A stretch of 64,000 nt of DNA from a virus (IMGVR_UViG_3300009709_000003:64001-128000), one strand, 5' to 3'. Counted from the stretch's first letter, positions 15,556-63,510 are shown. Translations and numbers: made by a program. The notes: generated by a model not told the origin, from the letters alone.

Positions 15556-15573
15556 TTGCAAAGGCGATGCCAA
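15556..15573 (-). promoter_or_regulatory. Sigma-54-type promoter cassette
   Basis: Reverse complement TTGGCATCGCCTTTGCAA followed by TTTCCCTCTTAAC. Confidence 0.82.
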
Positions 15574-15578
15574 TCACT

Positions 15579-15785
15579 TCACTCGTGGCTAGGCACATCG
15601 TCCTCGACGAAGTAGTTCTGGGTGTCTTCAATGACGTCGCCGCCATACCATTCAGCACTCCAGCCGCAAAGCTCCTTAAGCTGAGCTGGGGTGAGCTGCT
15701 TCGGGTCCTGGTCAACCGGGATTTCGACGTCTGCATACTCAACGGACTCGACGATTCTCGTGATTGTGATGGTTTTTGTTTCCAT
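15579..15785 (-). CDS. Small acidic hypothetical protein
   Basis: METKTITITRIVESVEYADVEI; cassette RBS. Confidence 0.7.
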   Translation of the reverse strand: METKTITITRIVESVEYADVEIPVDQDPKQLTPAQLKELCGWSAEWYGGDVIEDTQNYFVEDDVPSHE

Positions 15786-15809
15786 GTAAAACTCCTGTTA
15801 AGAGGGGAA

Positions 15810-15827
15810 TTGCAAAGGCGATGCCAA
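15810..15827 (-). promoter_or_regulatory. Sigma-54-type promoter cassette
   Basis: Reverse complement TTGGCATCGCCTTTGCAA (identical to 15556) followed by TTCCCCTCTTAACAGGAG. Confidence 0.82.
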
Positions 15828-15902
15828 TCACTCGACCTGGTCAGACAGGCGAGCAATAAGGACTATCAGTACCAAAAAGAAAAAGGCGACTGGTTGTTCC
15901 AT
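15828..15902 (-). CDS. 24-aa single-transmembrane micropeptide
   Basis: MEQPVAFFFLVLIVLIARLSDQVE; GGGAG RBS; fills the gap between cassettes. Confidence 0.5.
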   Translation of the reverse strand: MEQPVAFFFLVLIVLIARLSDQVE

Positions 15903-15932
15903 AGCTGCTCCCTAAGTTTAAAACGGTGCCAG

Positions 15933-16076
15933 TCAATAGGCCAGCTCCACCCGCAGCCATTGGGTGGTCAGGACGCGGGCCAGCGAGCGGCGGGCCAAGG
16001 TCTTGGCTTCCTCAATGGAGCGAGCCTGGATGGAAAGGACGAACTTGTTGTCTATAAAGCAAGAGTAGGTGTGCAT
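15933..16076 (-). CDS. Small hypothetical protein, near-leaderless
   Basis: MHTYSCFIDNKFVLSIQARSIEEAK; ATG about 3 nt after predicted +1. Confidence 0.55.
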   Translation of the reverse strand: MHTYSCFIDNKFVLSIQARSIEEAKTLARRSLARVLTTQWLRVELAY

Positions 16077-16088
16077 ATTTAAGTAAAA

Positions 16089-16158
16089 TTGCAAGGAGGG
16101 TGCCAAATGTGGTAAGTAGGATAAGGTGGGATATACGGGGTTGGCACGGTCCCTGCAA
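16089..16158. promoter_or_regulatory. Divergent pair of sigma-54-type promoters (16089-16106 minus, 16141-16158 plus)
   Basis: TTGGCACCCTCCTTGCAA (reverse complement) and TTGGCACGGTCCCTGCAA; marks the strand switch of the gene arrays. Confidence 0.82.
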
Positions 16159-16192
16159 TGAAAATCCCGTACCCTTTTTGCAGGAGCGCAGC

Positions 16193-16381
16193 ATGACGAC
16201 GGAACTCGCAAGAACTCTTAAGTTGGTATTCCAAAACGGTCGCTTTGTGGCCAAGAACGCTTTCGGGACTATCTGCTTTTTGTCCGAGGACCGCCGTCAG
16301 GTCCAGGTCTGGATTGAGGAGCAGATTCGCATGTCGAAACTGCAGGAGCCGGTCCGCAGCCTGGCATCGCTTTTGCAATAA
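16193..16381 (+). CDS. Small hypothetical protein
   Basis: AGGAG RBS, MTTELARTLKLVF. Confidence 0.65.
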   Translation: MTTELARTLKLVFQNGRFVAKNAFGTICFLSEDRRQVQVWIEEQIRMSKLQEPVRSLASLLQ

Positions 16382-16433
16382 AGAAGGTATGGGGAGTTAA
16401 GCACAGGTCGCAAGACTGGCACGATTCCTGCAA
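16361..16433 (+). promoter_or_regulatory. Two tandem sigma-54-type promoters (16361-16378 and 16416-16433)
   Basis: CTGGCATCGCTTTTGCAA and CTGGCACGATTCCTGCAA. Confidence 0.75.
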
Positions 16434-16466
16434 TTTTAAAAGTAGACACCAAACAGGAGAAGACAG

Positions 16467-16712
16467 ATGGGTAAACTCGAAGCCATCGCTCGCCTTGAAG
16501 AGATCAAAGAAGAGATGCAAGCTCTGCTTTTAGAGGCCAGTCATCTGGTGCGACAATACGCCGGGGAGCGCTCCATCTCAGACAGAGCACATGCCTACTG
16601 GGTGCCACATATCGAACAGGCGCTTGAGACAACCGGTTACGACACCGACATGACGGGTACCATCAAGGAGATGGAAGAGTCAATCGAGGAAGAGCCAGCC
16701 GAAGCTGAATAA
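16467..16712 (+). CDS. Small acidic hypothetical protein
   Basis: AGGAG RBS. Confidence 0.7.
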   Translation: MGKLEAIARLEEIKEEMQALLLEASHLVRQYAGERSISDRAHAYWVPHIEQALETTGYDTDMTGTIKEMEESIEEEPAEAE

Positions 16713-16714
16713 CA

Positions 16715-16764
16715 CGGCGAAACCCCGCAGGGGGTCCTAGGGTCAGACCCTAGCTGACGAGCCG
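16715..16764 (+). ncRNA. Hammerhead ribozyme, type II
   Basis: CGGC-GAAA-CCCC(GCAG)GGGG-UC^-CUAGGGU(CAG)ACCCUAG-CUGACGA-GCCG; full core and three helices; predicted cleavage after C16736. Confidence 0.92.
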
Positions 16765-16796
16765 AGTAACAAAGTAACATACAACAAGCGGACCAA

Positions 16797-17003
16797 GTGA
16801 AGACCTACATCGTGACGGTGACGACGACAGAGATCTACGAAATTGACGCACCTAACATCCTGATGGCAGAAATGCTGAAGGACGGCATCCTGGAAGCTGA
16901 CGATATCGCGATCGAGCGAATGGTGATGGTAGACCGGTCAGTTACAATATCGACGACAGCTAAAATCGCAGATGTGGCACCAGTTTTGCAACAGAAAAAG
17001 TAA
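16797..17003 (+). CDS. Small acidic protein (KT[YF]IVT family)
   Basis: MKTYIVTVTTTEIYEIDA. Confidence 0.6.
   Translation: MKTYIVTVTTTEIYEIDAPNILMAEMLKDGILEADDIAIERMVMVDRSVTISTTAKIADVAPVLQQKK
16974..16991 (+). promoter_or_regulatory. Sigma-54-type promoter cassette
   Basis: GTGGCACCAGTTTTGCAA-CAGAAAAAGTAAC; near-identical to 17897. Confidence 0.8.
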
Positions 17004-17018
17004 CCACAGGAGAACAGC

Positions 17019-17516
17019 ATGAAGACGTTCATTGTAACACGCACCACGGTTGAGACTTTTATGATTCAAAGCGAAGACGCAGAAGGCGATATCGCGCACG
17101 GCAACATCGTCCTCGACAACGAAATGCCTACACATAGTGACACTGAAATTGTGTCGCGCGAAATGCTCGACGCGCCTGAGTACCGGGTTGTCATCATCGA
17201 AGAGAACATCGGTTGGAACGAGTTTAAGGGCGATTTTGAGAACGCGGAAGACGAAGCAGAAGCTAAGGAGGCATTCTACAAACACGGCGTTTACGGGTAT
17301 TCTGTCGAGATGCGCACTGTGGTTGACGGGCAATGGGACGACGTTGACAGTTGCTTTGGTTTCTTGGGCAACGAAAGGCAGTACATGTTGGACGTGGCAA
17401 TCGAACACATCCCAAAAGGTGTGGATGCCAAGATTTGGGAAAGTTTTTGCAATGCAGCTGAAGCTACTGAGACCAATGAAACGGTCACTGGTATTGGTGC
17501 GAGTGAAGCAGCCTAA
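17019..17516 (+). CDS. Very acidic hypothetical protein (KTFIVT N-terminus)
   Basis: AGGAG RBS; D/E-rich; VDSCFGF motif. Confidence 0.7.
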   Translation: MKTFIVTRTTVETFMIQSEDAEGDIAHGNIVLDNEMPTHSDTEIVSREMLDAPEYRVVIIEENIGWNEFKGDFENAEDEAEAKEAFYKHGVYGYSVEMRTVVDGQWDDVDSCFGFLGNERQYMLDVAIEHIPKGVDAKIWESFCNAAEATETNETVTGIGASEAA

Positions 17517-17518
17517 CA

Positions 17519-17568
17519 GGACGAAACCGCTTCGGCGGTCTGCTCGTAAAACGGGCACTGACGAGTCC
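17519..17568 (+). ncRNA. Hammerhead ribozyme, type II
   Basis: GGAC-GAAA-CCGC(UUCG)GCGG-UC^-UGCUCGU(AAA)ACGGGCA-CUGACGA-GUCC; predicted cleavage after C17540; RBS AAGGAG follows immediately. Confidence 0.92.
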
Positions 17569-17580
17569 AAGGAGAACGAC

Positions 17581-17889
17581 ATGGCAACGCAAGAGGAAAT
17601 CGAGGCAGTCCGCGACAATCTGGCAGACTATGGCCTCAGTGACGAGGTGATCTCGTTGGCGATCGACATATTTGGTGTTCATGCAGCGGATGCCCTTGAT
17701 GGCGGCGCTTATCAAGGCAAATACAATTCACTCAGCCACTATGCGTCAGAATACGTGGACGAAATTGGCCTACTCCATGGTTTGGATGACGTTATCGTCA
17801 AATATTTTGACTTTGAGTCGTATGGCCGCGATTTGGTGTCAGGTGGTGATGTAGTATACGAGAATGGCCACGTTTTTATTGCCAATTAA
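17581..17889 (+). CDS. ArdA-like antirestriction protein (short, C-terminal domains)
   Basis: YQGKYNSLSHYASEYVDE...KYFDFESYGRDLVSGGD...NGHVF resembles the ArdA C-terminus; true start 17581 from RBS. Confidence 0.7.
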   Translation: MATQEEIEAVRDNLADYGLSDEVISLAIDIFGVHAADALDGGAYQGKYNSLSHYASEYVDEIGLLHGLDDVIVKYFDFESYGRDLVSGGDVVYENGHVFIAN

Positions 17890-17896
17890 AACAAGC

Positions 17897-17914
17897 TTGG
17901 CACCAGTTTTGCAA
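17897..17914 (+). promoter_or_regulatory. Sigma-54-type promoter cassette
   Basis: TTGGCACCAGTTTTGCAA-ACAGAAAAGTAAC. Confidence 0.82.
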
Positions 17915-17939
17915 ACAGAAAAGTAACACGGGGGACAAC

Positions 17940-18203
17940 GTGAAAAAGAACGCAGCGCAACAAGCCTTGACCAACGCAGTGAACCGCGCCATCGCAAATG
18001 GAGCACCAGTGTACGAGAATCAACCCGTTGAGACGCCAAAACTCAAAACCTTTATCGTAACGCAGACCATAGTAAAGACCTTTGAAGTGCAAGAAGACGA
18101 CGCAGATAAAGCCAAAAGTGCGGTATTGACGTCCCGTTTTATTACTGGGACACAGACTGTAAACACTGTCGTAACAGAGAAGCTCGAAGGTGGCGTAATA
18201 TGA
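17940..18203 (+). CDS. Hypothetical protein with internal KTFIVT module
   Basis: GTG start, GGGGGA RBS. Confidence 0.6.
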   Translation: MKKNAAQQALTNAVNRAIANGAPVYENQPVETPKLKTFIVTQTIVKTFEVQEDDADKAKSAVLTSRFITGTQTVNTVVTEKLEGGVI

Positions 18204-18381: not shown

Positions 18382-19743
18382 ATGCGATTTAAGGTAGGGC
18401 AAGTCATTCGTAACCTTGATTCTGTCATCCCTCAATTTAAATGGCGGATTGATAGAGTTACAGAAAACGGGTACGTAGTGACGCCCCTGATTTATAAGGA
18501 CATCTACAAAGAACGTTTTCTCTCTGCTCACGACAGATTGGTTTTGGCAGAAGGGAATGGAGACAACAAGTGACAACACTTAAACGGAAATTCCCGCGCC
18601 GGGTGTACGGTAAGCGTGAACACAACTTGATGTTGCGACAACAGGCACTCATGCCACTGACATACAAGCCTTTCGAGCAAGCGATATATAATCAAGGCTG
18701 GCTAGATGCGAAGACGGCCATAGTGGAACAAGAATTGCAGGACATTTCAAACATGTTCACTGACCTGGAAAAGGACAACAAGCAATGAATCCAATTAAAA
18801 ATTACAGTGTAACCTGCAACTGCAAGTGTAACTGCCCAAAGTGTAACAAGAGAAAGTAACATGGAAGACAAACAAGTGAACCATAAAACCCGCAAATTGA
18901 GTGACGAGTTGGAGAGAACCCCAGAATGGGGAGTGTCCACCGGATTCGAAATTCGTACTATTGAAGCCATCCGCAACTTGGAATTTAACCTGCATGAGGC
19001 GCAAAAGGCCGCTGAAGATGCACACTTTTTGCTGACAGCAGAGGTTAAACGAGCAGAATCCGCTGAAGCCCGCATTAAAGAACTAGAGTCCACGTGTATT
19101 AAAGAATTTGAAAAGGGATACGACCAGGCCCTGTCTGAAGTTGGTGTCAAATGGGACGGGAACAAATTTGTAAAGAAAAATGGGGAGTCACATGAGTAAG
19201 TCAAAACTGCTTGATAGTAAACAGAAGATCATCAACTACGTGCAAAAACGACGTGATCGTATTGGTGAGGAACGAGATCTAATAACGAGGTTTGCCGAAG
19301 TACGTAAGTTGGAAGAACAAGCCAAAATAGCACGTCGAGCCTATGAACAACGGTGTGAGGCTACACGACCAGAATTCAATGCTGCTTGGGACCGTGTCAG
19401 TATGGACGCCAAGAAATATTTGAATGCCTTGGTAGCCGGCACGCCCGTAACAGTGGATACGGATGCAGATGAGATGCGGGACAGACTTGTCAAACCTACC
19501 CTTGGTGTGGTAGAATAATCCCATAAATTTCAACTTGGAGGGCACTTGGCGGACAAAGAGTCTGACACACTGCAGTACACCAGCGCAGAGGAGATTCATT
19601 CAGACCTACAAGAAATTAGAAGGAAAATCCAGGAGATCACAGCTAAGCGGCGAGCATTTTTATCCTCGTACCTAAACAAGATTTTTACATCTAACTTAGA
19701 GGAAGAGAAAAATGAAACACAATCCATTCATAGACGCCATTAA
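18382..19743 (+). CDS. Run of small hypothetical genes (18382..18573, 18570..18788, 18861..19199, 19192..19518, 19546..19743)
   Basis: Coupled plus-strand ORFs with RBSs. Confidence 0.55.
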
Positions 19744-20104
19744 CAAGGCTTTCCCTAACATGGAGAAGATCTACGCCGAACTCGAAGAACAATTCGAACC
19801 AGGTGTGATCAGAGCGGCAGTAAAAACCTTTGGCATGGACCACGCTATCAAGGCTCTGAATCAAGGCGCATATCGAGGTAGATTTAAAAGTGTGGGCGCA
19901 TACGCAGAATCTGTGATTGCAGACCTGGCCATCCTGAACAACGACTTGTTGAAACTTTACTTTGACTACGACGCGTTCACTCGGGATCTGGGCCATGACG
20001 TCCATTTTATCGATGGGTACATTTTTGACATTGAATACGGACCTGGTATTACCTCATCAAGATCTATCATTGTGGATGACGAGGAAGACCATGAAATTCA
20101 GTGA
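19712..20104 (+). CDS. Second ArdA-like protein
   Basis: GAYRGRFKSVGAYAE...LYFDYDAFTRDL...DGYIF; paralog of 17581. Confidence 0.65.
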   Translation: MKHNPFIDAINKAFPNMEKIYAELEEQFEPGVIRAAVKTFGMDHAIKALNQGAYRGRFKSVGAYAESVIADLAILNNDLLKLYFDYDAFTRDLGHDVHFIDGYIFDIEYGPGITSSRSIIVDDEEDHEIQ

Positions 20105-20835: not shown

Positions 20836-20853
20836 TTGGCATAGTCATTGCAG
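20836..20853 (+). promoter_or_regulatory. Sigma-54-type promoter
   Basis: TTGGCATAGTCATTGCAG upstream of the helicase. Confidence 0.75.
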
Positions 20854-20883
20854 ATAAATCGTAACATCTGTCTGGAGTGGTCT

Positions 20884-21897
20884 ATGCAACTTCGAGATTA
20901 TCAAATTAAAGTCATCGACCAGGTAATCTCGAACATTAGGGGAGGGGACACGTCAGTTTTGATTGAATCTCCCACAGGCAGTGGAAAGACAATTATGGGG
21001 ATTGCTTTGGCCGCCAAACTCGGCAACGAACAACGTGTCGGATGGGTGGCTACACGCCGCAATCTGTTGGCGCAGGCCAAAGAGGCCCAAATGCAATGGG
21101 CACCTTCCATGAAATTCTTCCCTATCTCTGCCTTTGAGAAGTCCCCTCCCCTAGTTGACATTCTCATCATTGATGAAGCCCACCACACGGCGACAACGAG
21201 TATTTCAGACATCTTGATTCAATCTAAAGCCAAAATCGTCATCGGGTTGACTGCTACGCCCTTTCGTTCAGACGGTATGATGTTGGCGTTCAAGTCCCAG
21301 GTAAAGGGCTGTGGAATTCACACCCTCATCCAAGACGGTTGGTTGTCTCCTTTCGACCATTTTTCAATCAAAGATTGGTCACCAAAAGAAGTTGTGAACA
21401 CATATCTGAGAGAGCAAGACCGCTTTGGTAAATCCTGCATCTTTTTCCACACTCGGAAAGAGTGTCAGACAGCCATGAACCTGCTGCGTGCGGGTGGGGT
21501 AGAGTGCGAGTTGGTGACGGGAGAGAGCGACCGAGAGCGCCAACTTCATCAATTCGAGACCGGTAAGACCAAAGTGCTGGTCAACATGATGGTCCTCACT
21601 GAGGGTTTCGATGCCCCCGACTTGCAGTCTATTTTCATCCGGGATTCAAGTAAAGGTCCCACCATTCAGATGGGTGGGAGAGTGTTGCGGAAAGTGCCGG
21701 GAATCGCTGTAAAGAATATCGTCCAGAGTGTAAACACACGGATGCCGTTCACCCGGGTTGCAACGGCCAAGACGCAATATCTGTATGAAGACGATAGGTG
21801 GGTGAGTATCACCGCCAACCCACATGTTGAGAAAATGGTCAATGTCGCTCTCAGTCAGTTGCGACGCAACGTGTTGAAAAATATACGGGAGTATTAA
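20884..21897 (+). CDS. Superfamily 2 DEAH helicase (ResIII/UvsW-like)
   Basis: LRDYQ, SPTGSGKT, DEAHH, TATP, LTEGFD, QMGGRVLR. Confidence 0.92.
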   Translation: MQLRDYQIKVIDQVISNIRGGDTSVLIESPTGSGKTIMGIALAAKLGNEQRVGWVATRRNLLAQAKEAQMQWAPSMKFFPISAFEKSPPLVDILIIDEAHHTATTSISDILIQSKAKIVIGLTATPFRSDGMMLAFKSQVKGCGIHTLIQDGWLSPFDHFSIKDWSPKEVVNTYLREQDRFGKSCIFFHTRKECQTAMNLLRAGGVECELVTGESDRERQLHQFETGKTKVLVNMMVLTEGFDAPDLQSIFIRDSSKGPTIQMGGRVLRKVPGIAVKNIVQSVNTRMPFTRVATAKTQYLYEDDRWVSITANPHVEKMVNVALSQLRRNVLKNIREY

Positions 21898-48303: not shown

Positions 48304-49857
48304 ATGCAAACTCCACTCGTCCCATGTTGTCCTCTATGTGGTAGTGAAACCCCTAAAGTTGTTCATAATGGAGAGAGGTTTAAGTGTAAAGCTTGTGATA
48401 AAACCTTTCTTAAAGAGAAACTTACCTACAAAGAAGTTGTTTATCAACGTGCTCAAGGAAATAAGTTTGTAATTACGTCTGCAGTTAGCGACTCAAAAGC
48501 AGATGTGAATTTTTTGGCAGCTCTGGATAACTATTGCAAGCATAACCATGCGCAATTGTTGATTGTGCCAGTCCCATATCGAAATCCAACCTCAAATACT
48601 GAGCACCCAAACAGGGTATATGATGTAATCTTAAGTAAATATTTCATCCAAAAACCTGTTGAGCTTGGTCACAAACTTATGTTGTTTTCCAATGTTCACA
48701 TTCAGCCTACTGCTAGTCGTCCACTCAGCAGCATGCAATCTTTTGGTGGTGAAAAATCAGCTATCTTCGGTCATCCCAAAGTGGCCGCTGAATTTGTAGC
48801 TACCCGTCTTGGTAAGGAACCCAAGACCGTTCTTACTACAGGTGCCGTAACCAAATCTAGATATGGCGACTCAAAGGCTGGTATTAAGGGCGATTTCCAC
48901 CACGTGATTGGTGCGCTAGTTGTCGAAATTGATGAAGAAGCTTTTCATTGGCGGCATGTGTACGCTAATAAGGATGGGTCTTTTTTTGACGTAGACTTGA
49001 AGTATTTCGCAGACGGCACAGTTTCTAAAATTCTAGAAGTAGCCACCACCAAGAAAGATGCTGAAATCATCTTGACCTGTGGTGATCTGCATGCGGTTAG
49101 AGCAGACCCAGTTGCCCTTGAACAGACCTTTTTTGCAAAAGATAGTATCTTCCACTCGGTGAGGCCATCTGTGGTGATGATTCATGACGGGCTTGATTTT
49201 CAGAGTGCCAGTCATCACAATGGTTTTTTCACTAATATGCGTCTTCACAATAAAGGTGAACGTTCAGTTCAAAAAGAACTTGAGGCCACTTGTGCATTGA
49301 TAGACCGAATTGCCGAGTTGGATCCAAACGTTCAGATTGTGATTGTAGACTCAAACCACCCGCGTCATATGGGTAGATGGCTTGAGAACCTACATAACGC
49401 GCACGACTACGAAAATGCTCTGATTTATCACAAGACCAAGACAGCCTGGATTGAAGCTATTCTAGCGGATAAAGAATTTGACGCTTTTGCATTTTGGGCT
49501 AAACAGCTTCTTAAGCATGGCAACCAAGTTCTATTCTTAGGAAAAAATCAGTCATATGTAAGAAACGGCATAGAATACGCCATCCACGGTGACGTTGGAC
49601 CCAATGGAGCAAGAGGATCAAGACAGGCTTTTGTAAATCTAGGTAATAAGCTGGTCATCGGGCATAGTCACACTCCAGGTATCACAGATGGCGTATTTCA
49701 AGTAGGTACGACATCTCTTAAGGATCTTGGGTACAACCGGGGTTTTTCGAGCTGGTGCCACACACATTGTATTACATACCCAAACGGGAAACGTACACTA
49801 GTGTCGATCATTAATGGGTCTTGGCGCATGCCACGCAGAAAAAGTAGGCATACCTAA
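48304..49857 (+). CDS. T5 A1-like metallophosphoesterase/nuclease with N-terminal Zn ribbon
   Basis: CPLC/CKAC; FVITSA; GDLH; SNH; HGDVGPNGARGS; GHSH; GYNRGFSSW..H...YPNGKR, recalled as the A1-family pattern. Confidence 0.6.
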   Translation: MQTPLVPCCPLCGSETPKVVHNGERFKCKACDKTFLKEKLTYKEVVYQRAQGNKFVITSAVSDSKADVNFLAALDNYCKHNHAQLLIVPVPYRNPTSNTEHPNRVYDVILSKYFIQKPVELGHKLMLFSNVHIQPTASRPLSSMQSFGGEKSAIFGHPKVAAEFVATRLGKEPKTVLTTGAVTKSRYGDSKAGIKGDFHHVIGALVVEIDEEAFHWRHVYANKDGSFFDVDLKYFADGTVSKILEVATTKKDAEIILTCGDLHAVRADPVALEQTFFAKDSIFHSVRPSVVMIHDGLDFQSASHHNGFFTNMRLHNKGERSVQKELEATCALIDRIAELDPNVQIVIVDSNHPRHMGRWLENLHNAHDYENALIYHKTKTAWIEAILADKEFDAFAFWAKQLLKHGNQVLFLGKNQSYVRNGIEYAIHGDVGPNGARGSRQAFVNLGNKLVIGHSHTPGITDGVFQVGTTSLKDLGYNRGFSSWCHTHCITYPNGKRTLVSIINGSWRMPRRKSRHT

Positions 49858-58831: not shown

Positions 58832-60115
58832 TCAAGCATTATCCGGTGTTCGGGTGATATCATCGGTTTTCCAGGTTGAGTGTTCGACCAAATAATCCAC
58901 AATCCAATTAATGTAGACACCCATGTCAACTGTAGATGGAGTAACTGCAACTTTATCTTTGCTGGAGGTTGGATAGGGTATAGAAAAAAGCACCCCCAAA
59001 TTCCAAAGTTTAAATGTGATATCGCATACATCCAACATGCGCAACTTTTCAGTTTCTAGTTCGTCGGCCTTAATCGTACCCGCTGCAAGAGATCGATTAG
59101 CCAACATCTGTACATATTCCTCAGACACAGGCGCGGATAATTTTACAACTTGGCGCACCTTATCAATAACGGTGTTCTTTTTATACTGCACCTCGGCGGT
59201 TTCCATTTGCTGAAGTGCGTTCGTTGTCAAAACTTCCCGCCAAATCTTAAGGTTATCATACCCAGCAGTAATGGCCAATTCGTCGTCAACTGGTTGTGGT
59301 TCGCAAGTAAATGTATGGTTTACCGTTACTTCGAGCGTTAATTGGTCCAATCCAATAGTTTTAGCAAATTCATTGTCCTCAAGCAAAAACATATCTCCGG
59401 ACTTTTGGCCTACCAGAACTTTTAGTAGAGAAGGTGGGCGCATATAACCTTCCAACATGCGCAGTTTCACACTTGATTCACGAAGTTCAACTACTTCATT
59501 ACCATTTGTAAAAGCTCGCACAGAAACTTCTACGGAGTCGCCAATCTCTGCCGGCAAAGAATTGCCTGCCTCATCGGTTTTGGTACGCAGAATTGGATTT
59601 GAAATCGAAAAATTGTGTGTGGCTTTATCTACTACTGCATCCACATCCAAATGTGGTAAAGATGGCAAAATAAATTGTGACATGTCAATTGGCTCCATAC
59701 TAGGGATAACCATTAAGTCACAAGTTACCTGCCAAGATTGATCATCCAATTTGCTAGCCATATGATGTGAAGTATACAACATCCGATATGGGGATTGCAA
59801 CTTCAATTCATTATCCACAAGAGATGCAAATGTTTCCCCATACACTTTCTCTGCTCCTCCCAAACGTTTTTCAAGCAAATGGCGATTAACACCCTTTCCA
59901 TTTCTAAAACCAGGAACAGAGGATTGCTTGAGGCTTTTAGCTGCAGTTTTTTCAATTTTAGTGGAAATTGCTTTACCAATTTTAACTTTAACCGCAAACA
60001 AGGCACCATCTACATGGGTACCAGTCAAATCGAATTGATCATTCTTAAAATGGAAGTTTTCCATTGGCTTTTGCCTATGAAATTGTGAAATATCTTTTCG
60101 ATCAAAATCTTGCAT
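58832..60115 (-). CDS. tig: Trigger factor-like chaperone
   Basis: Ribosome-binding loop-like VPGFRNGK; PAEIGDSVEV FKBP-like domain; DDELA. Confidence 0.8.
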   Translation of the reverse strand: MQDFDRKDISQFHRQKPMENFHFKNDQFDLTGTHVDGALFAVKVKIGKAISTKIEKTAAKSLKQSSVPGFRNGKGVNRHLLEKRLGGAEKVYGETFASLVDNELKLQSPYRMLYTSHHMASKLDDQSWQVTCDLMVIPSMEPIDMSQFILPSLPHLDVDAVVDKATHNFSISNPILRTKTDEAGNSLPAEIGDSVEVSVRAFTNGNEVVELRESSVKLRMLEGYMRPPSLLKVLVGQKSGDMFLLEDNEFAKTIGLDQLTLEVTVNHTFTCEPQPVDDELAITAGYDNLKIWREVLTTNALQQMETAEVQYKKNTVIDKVRQVVKLSAPVSEEYVQMLANRSLAAGTIKADELETEKLRMLDVCDITFKLWNLGVLFSIPYPTSSKDKVAVTPSTVDMGVYINWIVDYLVEHSTWKTDDITRTPDNA

Positions 60116-62156
60116 TGTAATCCCCTGTATAATCAACACTTGACATGTCATTTTTCTTAGTGATGGTCCAAGTGTTGTCGAAATCCATACTATTTACAAA
60201 TCTACTGTTGTGACTAATTATCAAGCACGTGTCTGTATGTTTAAGTCTATCGAAAGCCAAAATAAGATTATCTATGTTCGTGTTATCCAAGGCGTCATCA
60301 ATTTCGTCAACAGCTGCGAAATTAACTCCAACTCCACGTTCGAAAGCCAGTGTTCTCATAGCCAAAAACACAGCGAACACTATCATTTTTGATTCACCGC
60401 CTGAATACATACCAATCGGTATGTCACCCCGACCAGTAACGGAAACTATCAAGTCTATGCCTTGTTTAACACCCTTGCCTGACGCCTTTGTTTGAGCTGT
60501 CACAAATCTAGCAGTTGCACCACCAGGCCAAATTGTTTCTAATTCCTCGGCAAGCAACTGGTTAAGCCTTTCAATAGAAACGTCGTATTCCTGCAACTTT
60601 ATCTTTTTGAAATGTTTATCTAAAAATTGTGCATGCTGTACGTCAAGTAGCTTGCTCTCGATAGTACCCGCTAAGGCATTTTTCTCATCCAATGCTTTAG
60701 TATATTGGTCGCGACGAGCCACCATGTCTTCCAACTGCTTGGTGGCCACTTGTATGTCTCTGACTATAGACTTAAATGCGATTTCTTTAGTGTTCAAATG
60801 CGATTGCTTAAGTAACAAATCGTTTTTTAGACTAGAATGGTCAACTTGCGTTGACATCGCAGATATGCTCTGAAGTATTGTTTTTATTTTTAAGTCTATG
60901 TCTTTAACTAGGGCTTCTGTTTCAATGTTATAATTGCTTCGCTCAAATTGTTCCAACATAAATAGCTGTCTGTTAGCATCCGATATCAACAAGTCCAAAC
61001 TTTTTATCTTATTAACTGTTTCCTCTGAGTGATTCTCAACTGGATGGCTAGGTAAAGTTTGTTTGCAATATGGGCATATACCACTTACATTGTTCTTTAT
61101 AGCAGCAAGTTCTTTAGCCAAAATAGCCTTATCTAAGCTATATTCGGCAATTTTGGCCTTTAATTCTTCATGAGTGTCTGAGTATTTAATCGGCCTAAAA
61201 GAAACCGCACCACGCTCAAGTTGAAGAGAGTCATAGTGTTGACGCAATGCGTCCATTTGTCTAGCATGTGCTTGAGATGCCGTTTCGGCAGTTAGCAATG
61301 CTGATTGTGCTGCTGAATACTCCGCAACTGCCGTTTGTCTCTCCTGGTCTGCAACTTGCTTGGCAAGTTTCAACGACTCAAGCCCAACTACTACTTCAGA
61401 CATCTCGTGGTCGGACGGATAAGTAAACTTACTAAGCCACCCCTCCATAGTTTGATGTCGAATATTTAAAGCATCAACTTCTACCTGGATAGATGAAGCT
61501 TTAACTTTAGCTAATTCGGCAGCACGTTCCCATAAAGAAACGTCAACAACAGCTTTTATGATTTTTTCGCGTTCACCTGAAGTACCATTAGTAAGTACGG
61601 ACATAGCCCGTTGACCAATGCTCACATATGCAGAAAACTGGTCGATTGTCATCTTCAACACATCTTTGCAGACGTACTTCTGAATATCAAGAATTGTCTT
61701 GGCACCCTGTGATGTAGGACGATCATCAACCCACTCGTCCCCATCCCAATACTCTACAAACACATCTGTGCCTGTATATGTGTTTCCTGTGGAAAGTACA
61801 GTTGATGGCTCTGTGCCAATAATCGACGTACCTATTTCCTCATCAGTCCATTTCCGAGTTTGAATAACACGATATTTTATGTCATCATGATTGATGAACC
61901 AAAGTACACCAAACTGGCCTTTATTCCACAGTTTGTTTGTGTTTACAACATCTCCAGCGCCATGTCCAGTATCGTTTTCTCCAAAAGCAATCTGCTTAAC
62001 TGCATTTAGAATAGATGATTTACCAATTCCATTTGACGTGCCACGATCCACATCTGTGCCAGTAATATATACCCTACCCTGTTCGTGCAGAGGTATAGTT
62101 TTACAAACGCCATGAGAGAACATACCGGTTGTATTTACGGCCAAAAATGTAATCAC
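60102..62156 (-). CDS. sbcC: SbcC/Rad50 (gp46-like) ATPase
   Basis: NGIGKSS Walker A, CPYC zinc hook, YSGGE signature, VDE, ISH. Confidence 0.92.
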   Translation of the reverse strand: MITFLAVNTTGMFSHGVCKTIPLHEQGRVYITGTDVDRGTSNGIGKSSILNAVKQIAFGENDTGHGAGDVVNTNKLWNKGQFGVLWFINHDDIKYRVIQTRKWTDEEIGTSIIGTEPSTVLSTGNTYTGTDVFVEYWDGDEWVDDRPTSQGAKTILDIQKYVCKDVLKMTIDQFSAYVSIGQRAMSVLTNGTSGEREKIIKAVVDVSLWERAAELAKVKASSIQVEVDALNIRHQTMEGWLSKFTYPSDHEMSEVVVGLESLKLAKQVADQERQTAVAEYSAAQSALLTAETASQAHARQMDALRQHYDSLQLERGAVSFRPIKYSDTHEELKAKIAEYSLDKAILAKELAAIKNNVSGICPYCKQTLPSHPVENHSEETVNKIKSLDLLISDANRQLFMLEQFERSNYNIETEALVKDIDLKIKTILQSISAMSTQVDHSSLKNDLLLKQSHLNTKEIAFKSIVRDIQVATKQLEDMVARRDQYTKALDEKNALAGTIESKLLDVQHAQFLDKHFKKIKLQEYDVSIERLNQLLAEELETIWPGGATARFVTAQTKASGKGVKQGIDLIVSVTGRGDIPIGMYSGGESKMIVFAVFLAMRTLAFERGVGVNFAAVDEIDDALDNTNIDNLILAFDRLKHTDTCLIISHNSRFVNSMDFDNTWTITKKNDMSSVDYTGDYNARF

Positions 62157-62407
62157 TTAACATCTTCCAACTTCAAATTTGAATTCTTCATTAGTGAGAT
62201 AATGTCACGAATGAATTGGGCCTGGGCCTCATTGCCGGGCCACTTAGACGCTAACACACCGCGCAATGGGTCTGTCATAGGAGAAGTACGAAAAGAAGTT
62301 ACGTACTGACCTTTACCACCTAGAACCAAATCGTATTCTTCGCGGATTTTTTGCACTAGAGCTTTAATGTTTTTCAGATCATCACGTTCATCAAATATAT
62401 CAGACAT
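62153..62407 (-). CDS. Hypothetical protein
   Basis: Coupled between the sbcD- and sbcC-like genes. Confidence 0.6.
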   Translation of the reverse strand: MSDIFDERDDLKNIKALVQKIREEYDLVLGGKGQYVTSFRTSPMTDPLRGVLASKWPGNEAQAQFIRDIISLMKNSNLKLEDVK

Positions 62408-63510
62408 TAGTTCGCTTCCTGTTTGGCTTGGCTAATTATAGATAGACTATCCTGTATTAATTTATTGGGCTCAAGATTGCCGATCTCTTGTGCTTTTAGA
62501 TAAACTGTAAACTTATTTTCTGGCGTGTCTTTAACATTAAAACCATCCACCAGCTTAATTTTTTCAAATTGCCGTTGCACTATCAAACGTAGTGACCTAA
62601 TTGGCAATTCTTTATTTAAGAATGTAGAAACCTCATCTCTGTCAACGTCTTTGGTAGACTGAACGGTAAGTTCTATGATGGCCTCTTGACCTGGCAAAAG
62701 CACCTGTTTTATGTTTGATACAAGCACATTGAGGCTCCTTTTATCAGTCGATTGCACAACTTCTTTAAAGGGCACTGGTGATAAAGGACGAATTAACTCC
62801 ATTTCAACACCGTCTCTAGTGACTTCAAAAGCCCAAAAGCCACGCGTTTGTCCACGATCTCCCATAGAGTGATACATTGGAGCACCCATGTACAGAGAAG
62901 GACAACCAAGAAGTTGGTCTAAACGCTGAGCGGTGTGATTGTCCGCACCAATCACTAGACTAGGTTTAAATTGTTTTATGGTCTCCGGGTCTATGCCTGT
63001 ATGAACAGCTTCACCATTCGCAAAGTAGGAACCCTTTAACAATCCGTGGAAAACAACCACTAATGGACATTCAAGACGCCTATTAGACATATCTATTGGT
63101 TGACGCTCAAGACCAGACGGCATAAATAACACGTCAACATCTTCTACATGAACCACAGTATTCCGATCATACGGAATGAACTTAGATAAGTCCTTTGTAA
63201 ATATCTCGGCTCTCTGGAATGCATGTCCTGATATAGCACTACGGCGGTTACGGTCGTGATTGCCGATACATGTTAATGTGACAATGCCACGATCACAGCG
63301 TTCTTTCCAAGCACGCTCTGCAGCCATTGATACAGCTTGTTCGGGCTGAGTATTCTTATAGGCATCACCACCAAAAATTACACAAGCAACTGCACGCTTT
63401 ACAGCTTCTTCAGTAATGAGACGATCTATATCCTCTATATCGGACAGTGTCACAGCGTTTGAAAAATATCCATTATGGTAATGGATATCGCCATATCCTA
63501 GAAATTTCAT
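62407..63510 (-). CDS. sbcD: SbcD/Mre11 (gp47-like) nuclease
   Basis: GDIH, GGD, GNHD, FHG, DNH; adjacent to Rad50-like gene. Confidence 0.88.
   Translation of the reverse strand: MKFLGYGDIHYHNGYFSNAVTLSDIEDIDRLITEEAVKRAVACVIFGGDAYKNTQPEQAVSMAAERAWKERCDRGIVTLTCIGNHDRNRRSAISGHAFQRAEIFTKDLSKFIPYDRNTVVHVEDVDVLFMPSGLERQPIDMSNRRLECPLVVVFHGLLKGSYFANGEAVHTGIDPETIKQFKPSLVIGADNHTAQRLDQLLGCPSLYMGAPMYHSMGDRGQTRGFWAFEVTRDGVEMELIRPLSPVPFKEVVQSTDKRSLNVLVSNIKQVLLPGQEAIIELTVQSTKDVDRDEVSTFLNKELPIRSLRLIVQRQFEKIKLVDGFNVKDTPENKFTVYLKAQEIGNLEPNKLIQDSLSIISQAKQEAN

Follow-up and report, generated by a model that had tools for sequence, protein, structure and literature searches.

[quoted passage not shown] Cleavage in vitro was seen with three tandem arrangements, and for the set from Agrobacterium also on expression in E. 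coli. The triple hammerhead arrangement of Agrobacterium tumefaciens flanks ardA, and in three Legionella strains ardA lies immediately downstream of a hammerhead. Circular or spliced products were considered and sought in the same study; neither was detected. Most of the type II hammerheads described carry a pseudoknot, which is needed for fast cleavage at low Mg2+; a contact between loop I and the tail is predicted in about 40% of all hammerheads and is not obligatory (PMC3088659). Olzog et al (2021; PMC8782182) reported three type II hammerheads near phage-like genes that cleave in vivo in Desulfovibrio vulgaris. The ends left by cleavage, a 2',3'-cyclic phosphate and a 5'-OH, are those joined by RtcB ligases (PMC8782182).

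The locus described here belongs to a phage genome assembled from a moss metagenome, a virus record of 160,708 bp with direct terminal repeats and 43% G+C. A search for sequencing runs that contain this DNA gave the moss metagenome alone, its likely source, and no RNA run. The window, by which we mean the whole stretch of DNA that was analysed, is 64 kb long (bases 64001-128000 of the record), and positions are counted from its first letter. It contains two hammerheads in consecutive intergenic gaps, with these parts:

16714-16764, + strand: hammerhead 1 (HH1), type II, with a leading conserved A; predicted cut between C16736 and C16737
16715-16718 and 16761-16764, + strand: HH1 stem II (CGGC with GCCG)
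16719-16722, + strand: HH1 GAAA
16722-16726 and 16731-16735, + strand: HH1 stem III, with loop GCAG
16736, + strand: HH1 C17
16737-16743 and 16747-16753, + strand: HH1 stem I
16754-16760, + strand: HH1 CUGACGA
17518-17568, + strand: hammerhead 2 (HH2), type II; predicted cut between C17540 and U17541
17519-17522 and 17565-17568, + strand: HH2 stem II (GGAC with GUCC)
17523-17526, + strand: HH2 GAAA; its stem III has a UUCG loop
17540, + strand: HH2 C17
17541-17547 and 17551-17557, + strand: HH2 stem I
17558-17564, + strand: HH2 CUGACGA

The setting closely resembles the published ones. As in the prophage clusters, co-oriented hammerheads bracket one or two small genes, and, as in the Agrobacterium and Legionella cases, a gene of the ArdA anti-restriction type comes directly after a ribozyme (PMC3088659). 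Three things set the locus apart from those clusters: the pair belongs to a phage whose 160-kb genome has direct terminal repeats, the ArdA-like protein is only 102 aa long, and hammerhead junctions alternate with junctions that carry sigma-54-like motifs. The hammerheads of D. vulgaris (cyPhyRNA-seq; PMC8782182) share the type II topology and the position beside hypothetical and phage-like genes; cutting inside cells was shown there, whereas our pair comes from another organism and other loci and is known from sequence. Hammerheads between phage genes, with ardA next to them, are an arrangement known since 2011, and the find is real and ordinary.

Both sites have the same order of parts, namely the 5' strand of stem II, GAAA, the stem III hairpin, the cut site, the stem I hairpin, CUGACGA, and the 3' strand of stem II. 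[quoted passage not shown] In each hammerhead, stem II is open and 4 bp long, stem III has 5 bp and is capped by a tetraloop, and stem I has 7 bp and a loop of 3 nt. By the criteria of Perreault et al (2011), the type II core is complete in both, with CUGACGA, GAAA, the A-U pair that closes stem III, and C17. All 16 pairs (4 + 5 + 7) are standard in HH1 and again in HH2, including the core-adjacent pairs 10.1-11.1, 1.1-2.1, and 15.1-16.1, and the ViennaRNA minimum-energy fold is exactly the three-way junction for each. A structured scan that covered all 160,708 bp on both strands gave HH1 and HH2 as the only well-formed sites; chance alone would yield 0.017 sites per genome even at looser thresholds (60 sequences simulated with a first-order Markov model of the genome). 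Judged from their sequences, HH1 and HH2 are complete, genuine type II hammerheads.

An earlier note on this DNA had described two intact hammerheads with a full core and three helices, a description borne out by direct reading and by the minimum-energy folds. It had also called the helices completely different yet still paired. Comparison of the two ribozymes upholds the pairing and part of the difference: both sides are changed at 8 of the 16 pairs with pairing kept, but stem III differs at a single pair. The selection on structure that was read from this stands, the helices being conserved through compensatory change. The placement was also given correctly, since at both sites stem II begins 3 nt after a TAA stop codon, that of an 81-aa ORF (16710-16712) for HH1 and that of a 165-aa ORF (17514-17516) for HH2. 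Counted from its leading A, each hammerhead starts 2 nt past the stop.

Comparison with the described family places the pair within it, with one structural difference. Like the type II hammerheads (RF02276, clan CL00010; PMC3088659), HH1 and HH2 have the core CUGANGA, GAAA, the A15.1-U16.1 pair, and C at H17, in the same permutation; they also share with RF02276 a short stem II, a conserved A before stem II, and a location in intergenic phage DNA. Unlike RF02276, they have no pseudoknot between loop I and the 3' tail, and their loops are shorter than those of the Rfam seed. Neither HH1 nor HH2 has a tail complementary to loop I, and no tertiary pairing is common to the two. A 4-bp match of loop I to CUGA at 16705-16708 occurs in HH1 only, and we treat it as chance.

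RF02276 (Hammerhead_II) is the best Rfam family for both ribozymes, with 26.6 bits for HH1 and 23.1 for HH2 in a 1.1-kb search, below the gathering cut-off of 37. The Rfam check that had been proposed for these sites therefore names the right family for both at scores that fall short of its threshold. At the gathering cut-off, Rfam returns nothing in the window or in the rest of the genome, and its permissive E-value mode on all 64 kb gives no matches; a single-family RF02276 search of the genome gives a sub-threshold match for HH2 only. Within the window, the two hammerheads are the sole Rfam candidates, and the part of the genome outside the window contains no other ribozymes, RNA families, or tRNA genes. 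The scores are low because the seed alignment has longer loops and a pseudoknot tail, and not through any defect in HH1 or HH2. We read the sub-threshold score as a limit of the Rfam seed and as no argument against membership.

We also scanned IMG/VR contigs with a pattern in which 17 core bases and two spacings are fixed and the helices are left unspecified. This core-only pattern occurs in at least 119 viral contigs, where a rough estimate gives about 10 by chance. All three helices are paired in 131 of the 132 core-pattern matches listed. In the subfamily alignment of the matches listed, which includes HH1 and HH2, 98.6% of helix cells are standard pairs, and the covariation score is 0.739; shuffling lowers it to 0.170, and sliding the partners to 0.107 or less. 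We then built a covariance model (R1) solely from 112 foreign phage copies, leaving out HH1 and HH2. R1 scores HH1 at 66.5 bits (16714-16772) and HH2 at 65.6 bits (17518-17576); part of this score is due by construction to the fixed search pattern, and the share contributed by the helices is independent of it. Searched against the 160-kb genome, R1 finds HH1 and HH2 only.

Several unpaired positions are conserved in the subfamily as well: among the copies listed, A1 is present in 110 of 112, U30 in 111 of 112, and A32 in 82 of 112, and all three are found in HH1 and HH2. Loop I and the tail show no covariation in the compact subfamily. In the 3' tail of 14 of the 112 foreign copies listed (alignment A3, columns 52-59), we observed GUCAG, which is complementary to the core CUGAC and could be a masking helix; it is absent from HH1 and HH2. 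On their alignment and model scores, HH1 and HH2 belong to a compact, pseudoknot-free type II subfamily that is abundant in phage contigs. A separate look at 20 viral contigs (L005-L077) gave no compact copies with Rfam at the gathering cut-off, whereas R1 finds them there at 57-77 bits. The earlier note's proposal of an undescribed system gives way to the precedent of Perreault et al (2011; PMC3088659) and to the recurrence of the same compact form in so many viral contigs, often in arrays.

The genes around the two ribozymes are small, and the three upstream of HH2 are acidic:

16467-16712, + strand: 81-aa acidic ORF, pI 4.4, with a strong AGGAG site
16797-17003, + strand: 68-aa acidic ORF, the first gene between the hammerheads, with a GTG start, a weak ribosome-binding site, and pI 4.5
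17019-17516, + strand: 165-aa very acidic ORF, the second gene between the hammerheads, pI 4.2; an orphan
17581-17889, + strand: 102-aa ArdA-like anti-restriction gene (PF07275, E 3.5e-12; phrog_2059, E 8.5e-13)
19712-20104: ArdA-like paralogue of 130 aa, matching the C-terminal part of the ArdA profile only, with no hammerhead before the gene

The 81-aa ORF has no match in Pfam or PHROG. Compared with 5.8 billion proteins, the 165-aa protein matches only itself, and nothing of use about its function came from Pfam, PHROGs, or the protein atlas. An N-terminal KT(Y/F)IVT motif is common to the 68-aa and 165-aa ORFs (E 0.001) and is also found in the ORF at 17940-18203. The 102-aa ArdA-like protein covers the C-terminal part of the ArdA profile. 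Its ATG lies 12 nt past the end of HH2, and the 3' strand of HH2 stem II abuts the AAGGAG ribosome-binding site. The two co-oriented hammerheads thus lie on the coding strand around two ORFs, with 804 nt between the predicted cuts (fragment 16737-17540).

The phage has no close relative among those searched: blastn of 6 kb against GenBank phages was empty, as were searches of viral contigs with the 165-aa, ArdA-like, and A1-like proteins. The best tblastn match of the A1-like protein has 44% identity and comes from Xanthomonas phage XacN1. Elsewhere in the window we noted genes for this T5 A1-like DNA transfer protein, whose best match is thus to a Xanthomonas jumbo phage, for SbcC- and SbcD-like nuclease subunits, and for a DNA helicase:

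48304-49857, 60102-62156, 62407-63510, and 20848-21897: together, the T5 A1-like, SbcC-/SbcD-like, and DNA helicase genes

Promoter-like sequences are spread through the same region:

16362-16377 and 16417-16432, + strand: two sigma-54-like -24/-12 motifs upstream of the 81-aa ORF
16975-16990, + strand: sigma-54-like motif between the hammerheads, upstream of the 165-aa ORF
17898-17913, + strand: identical 16-mer of the motif at 16975, after the ArdA-like gene

The window has 15 copies of the motif TGGCA-N7-TGCA, where 0.74 would be expected; they span 1715-40443 and are densest at 15557-17913. A slightly looser form, TGGCA-N7-TGC[AT], has 21 matches across the genome. Near 16.1 kb, the copies diverge from each other, ahead of small genes. 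The 16-mer is followed by a near-identical CAGAAAA(A)GTAAC leader at 16975-17018 and 17898-17939, before two different genes whose products have the N-terminal motif KTFIVT in common. These two segments look like a duplicated module made up of a promoter, a leader, and a gene start.

A profile search of the phage found no sigma-54 activator and no sigma-54 DNA-binding family. The candidate motif may represent use of the host sigma-54 without a recognisable activator, or it may be a look-alike promoter for another factor. The lack of a sigma-54 or activator gene despite the enrichment of the motif is a separate and more unusual matter, and we found no paper on sigma-54 early promoters in phages. 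In other hammerhead-bearing phage contigs the motif is at chance, with 17 matches in 1.04 Mb (about 1 per 64 kb). There is therefore no general coupling of sigma-54 motifs to hammerheads, as had been suggested for this locus; the two co-occur here without being a system.

The same motifs change how the locus is read. The hammerheads do flank two ORFs, as the earlier note had it, but the view of a two-gene segment bracketed by ribozymes hides the promoter-like site at 16975 inside that segment. Given the promoter-like sites at 16362/16417, 16975, and 17898, the layout reads as a repeated unit and not as a single bracket; it looks more like promoter-gene-ribozyme-gene, twice over, than like one bracketed unit.

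We consider it probable that HH1 and HH2 are two working type II hammerheads, transcribed in rightward polycistronic mRNAs, that split these promoter-gene-ribozyme-gene units. The motif itself, the family membership, and the typical placement are all observed in this genome. From them we infer that the sites are transcribed, that they are cut in vivo, and that stability or translation is affected. Rightward polycistronic mRNAs, made from the promoter-like sites at 16362/16417 and 16975, would carry the hammerheads, each of which would cut itself after C17 (16736 and 17540). On the upstream product, the GC-rich hairpin of stem III would form the 3' end and bear a 2',3'-cyclic phosphate; the downstream product would open with the stem I hairpin, at whose base the 5'-OH would lie. 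The 4-bp stem II alone would hold the two products together, and they should separate immediately, with little chance of religation. In this way the units would be divided into single-gene or otherwise short messages whose ends are capped by hairpins.

For the ArdA-like gene, the mRNA would always begin at 17541, with one fixed 40-nt leader, whichever promoter was used. A comparable effect is the basis of the RiboJ-type insulator, an engineered part derived from a satellite-RNA hammerhead of type III. Set ahead of a ribosome-binding site, the hammerhead strips off variable upstream RNA and leaves a fixed leader that starts with a hairpin. HH2 likewise sits directly upstream of the ribosome-binding site of the ArdA-like gene, and it may serve a similar natural role. 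The stabilisation of ends and the insulation of the leader draw on general knowledge of RNA decay and on engineered ribozyme insulators, and on this analogy the products would have stabilised ends and the ArdA leader would be insulated.

With no pseudoknot in HH1 or HH2, cleavage could be slow. Alternatively to working ribozymes, the motifs might be inactive or very slow ones, retained mainly as intergenic structures rich in hairpins or left over from cassette exchange, with no appreciable cleavage in the cell. The failure to find a pseudoknot or any other obvious tertiary contact is consistent with this, as are the scores below the Rfam cut-off and the stem III loop of HH1, GCAG, which is rare in a subfamily that usually has G..A or UUCG loops. 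Against it, every core position matches the active consensus and every helix pair is intact in both ribozymes, and the conserved unpaired A1, U30, and A32 are in place. Moreover, in more than 100 phages the core stays invariant while the helices covary, a pattern not easily accounted for unless catalysis is under selection. We regard inactivity as improbable, and working ribozymes remain our preferred reading.

The foreign copies also show how such ribozymes are placed. Among the matches listed, an ORF of at least 50 codons ends no more than 60 nt upstream in 116 of 119 foreign copies, stem II lies -2 to +4 nt from the stop codon in 95 of the 119 (21 with a 2-nt gap, as here), and the next start codon is mostly 6-45 nt away. 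About one third of the 100 foreign loci scanned with R1 carry two to seven copies. The largest arrays that we noted, L069:7306-9688 and L074:228-5393, have seven hammerheads each on one strand, at a spacing of about 240-1700 nt, and are far larger than the pair in the window. The genes downstream of the foreign copies listed are mostly small, highly varied, and without a known family; ArdA follows 2 of 106 copies, and a RecBCD inhibitor of the T7 Gp5.9 type follows 1.

Foreign hammerheads from the same phage resemble each other in part. Their stem II identity is 0.90, compared with 0.53 for random pairs, and their 3' tails are also alike; for stem I, stem III, and the loops, the likeness does not exceed that of random pairs. 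Foreign pairs with this likeness of stem II include those of L002, L015, L019, L054, L069, L082, L087, L109, and others. Common descent, with the long helices under pressure to diverge, could account for the likeness, as could a requirement that the copies be cross-compatible.

These observations raise the possibility that the hammerheads act at the DNA level as markers of cassette boundaries, short shared sequences that aid the exchange of small anti-defence cassettes, with RNA cleavage being secondary. The variety of the downstream genes would suit such a role, although few of those listed are anti-defence genes; so would the make-up of the region, an array of small genes with repeated promoter and ribosome-binding-site modules, and the sharing of stem II and tail within a phage. 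The common core, however, amounts to about 17 scattered bases among helices that differ, which makes the copies poor recombination substrates; the compensatory changes point to selection on the RNA fold, and no recombination junction was observed. We therefore think a primary role as boundary markers quite improbable, and favour self-cleavage of the mRNA as the function of the pair.

Ribozyme-flanked RNAs that form circles include viroid-like RNAs, retrozymes, and the engineered twister-based Tornado system. In these systems, the ends are joined via a helix or a re-formed ribozyme together with a known ligase. The pair in the window has one feature in common with them: given a read-through transcript, cuts after 16736 and 17540 would release, as had been claimed, an 804-nt RNA with two acidic ORFs (pI 4.5 and 4.2), and this one fragment, cut by both ribozymes, would bear a 5'-OH as well as a 2',3'-cyclic phosphate, ends that are substrates of RtcB (PMC8782182). 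Joined by a host ligase of the RtcB type or by reversal of the hammerhead reaction, the fragment would become a stable circle, an early mRNA that encodes two acidic proteins with a possible anti-defence role. Other phages lend the idea some weight, since the matching of stem II within phages means that excised fragments could re-form a hammerhead at the junction; the junction stem II is fully paired in 29 of 46 neighbouring foreign pairs, compared with 26% of random pairs. If circles were made, phage hammerhead pairs would be a natural circular-mRNA device.

The window pair is off this foreign trend. Only 2 of the 4 pairs of the junction stem II can form between HH1 and HH2, which puts them in the lowest group, and folding of the junction sequence yields no hammerhead. 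The earlier note had seen the mismatched junction as a safeguard against re-cleavage, an idea that is undercut by the fully paired junctions of the foreign neighbours. Unlike those of the known circle-forming systems, the ends of the fragment are unpaired with each other: the first and last 70 nt give -26.0 kcal/mol, compared with -26.4 +/- 4.6 for shuffled sequence, and both ends sit in hairpins. A family search, in line with the check that had been suggested, found no RtcB gene in the phage. Many transcripts would also begin within the segment, from the promoter-like site at 16975. Perreault et al detected no circular or spliced products from such arrangements (PMC3088659), and our literature search gave no report of hammerheads that make natural circular mRNAs in phages. 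Taken together, these points make circularisation of the 804-nt fragment, and with it a circular message for the two acidic proteins, very unlikely.

Accordingly, neither a new system nor a circular RNA can any longer be claimed for this window. As the phage is uncultivated and has no known relatives, the locus alone does not make the role of the ribozymes more testable. What it provides is a clean further example of a 15-year-old pattern, in which self-cleaving ribozymes lie between small phage genes and before a gene of the ArdA type. It also means that standard annotation at the Rfam cut-off misses an abundant, compact, pseudoknot-free form of the type II hammerhead in phages.
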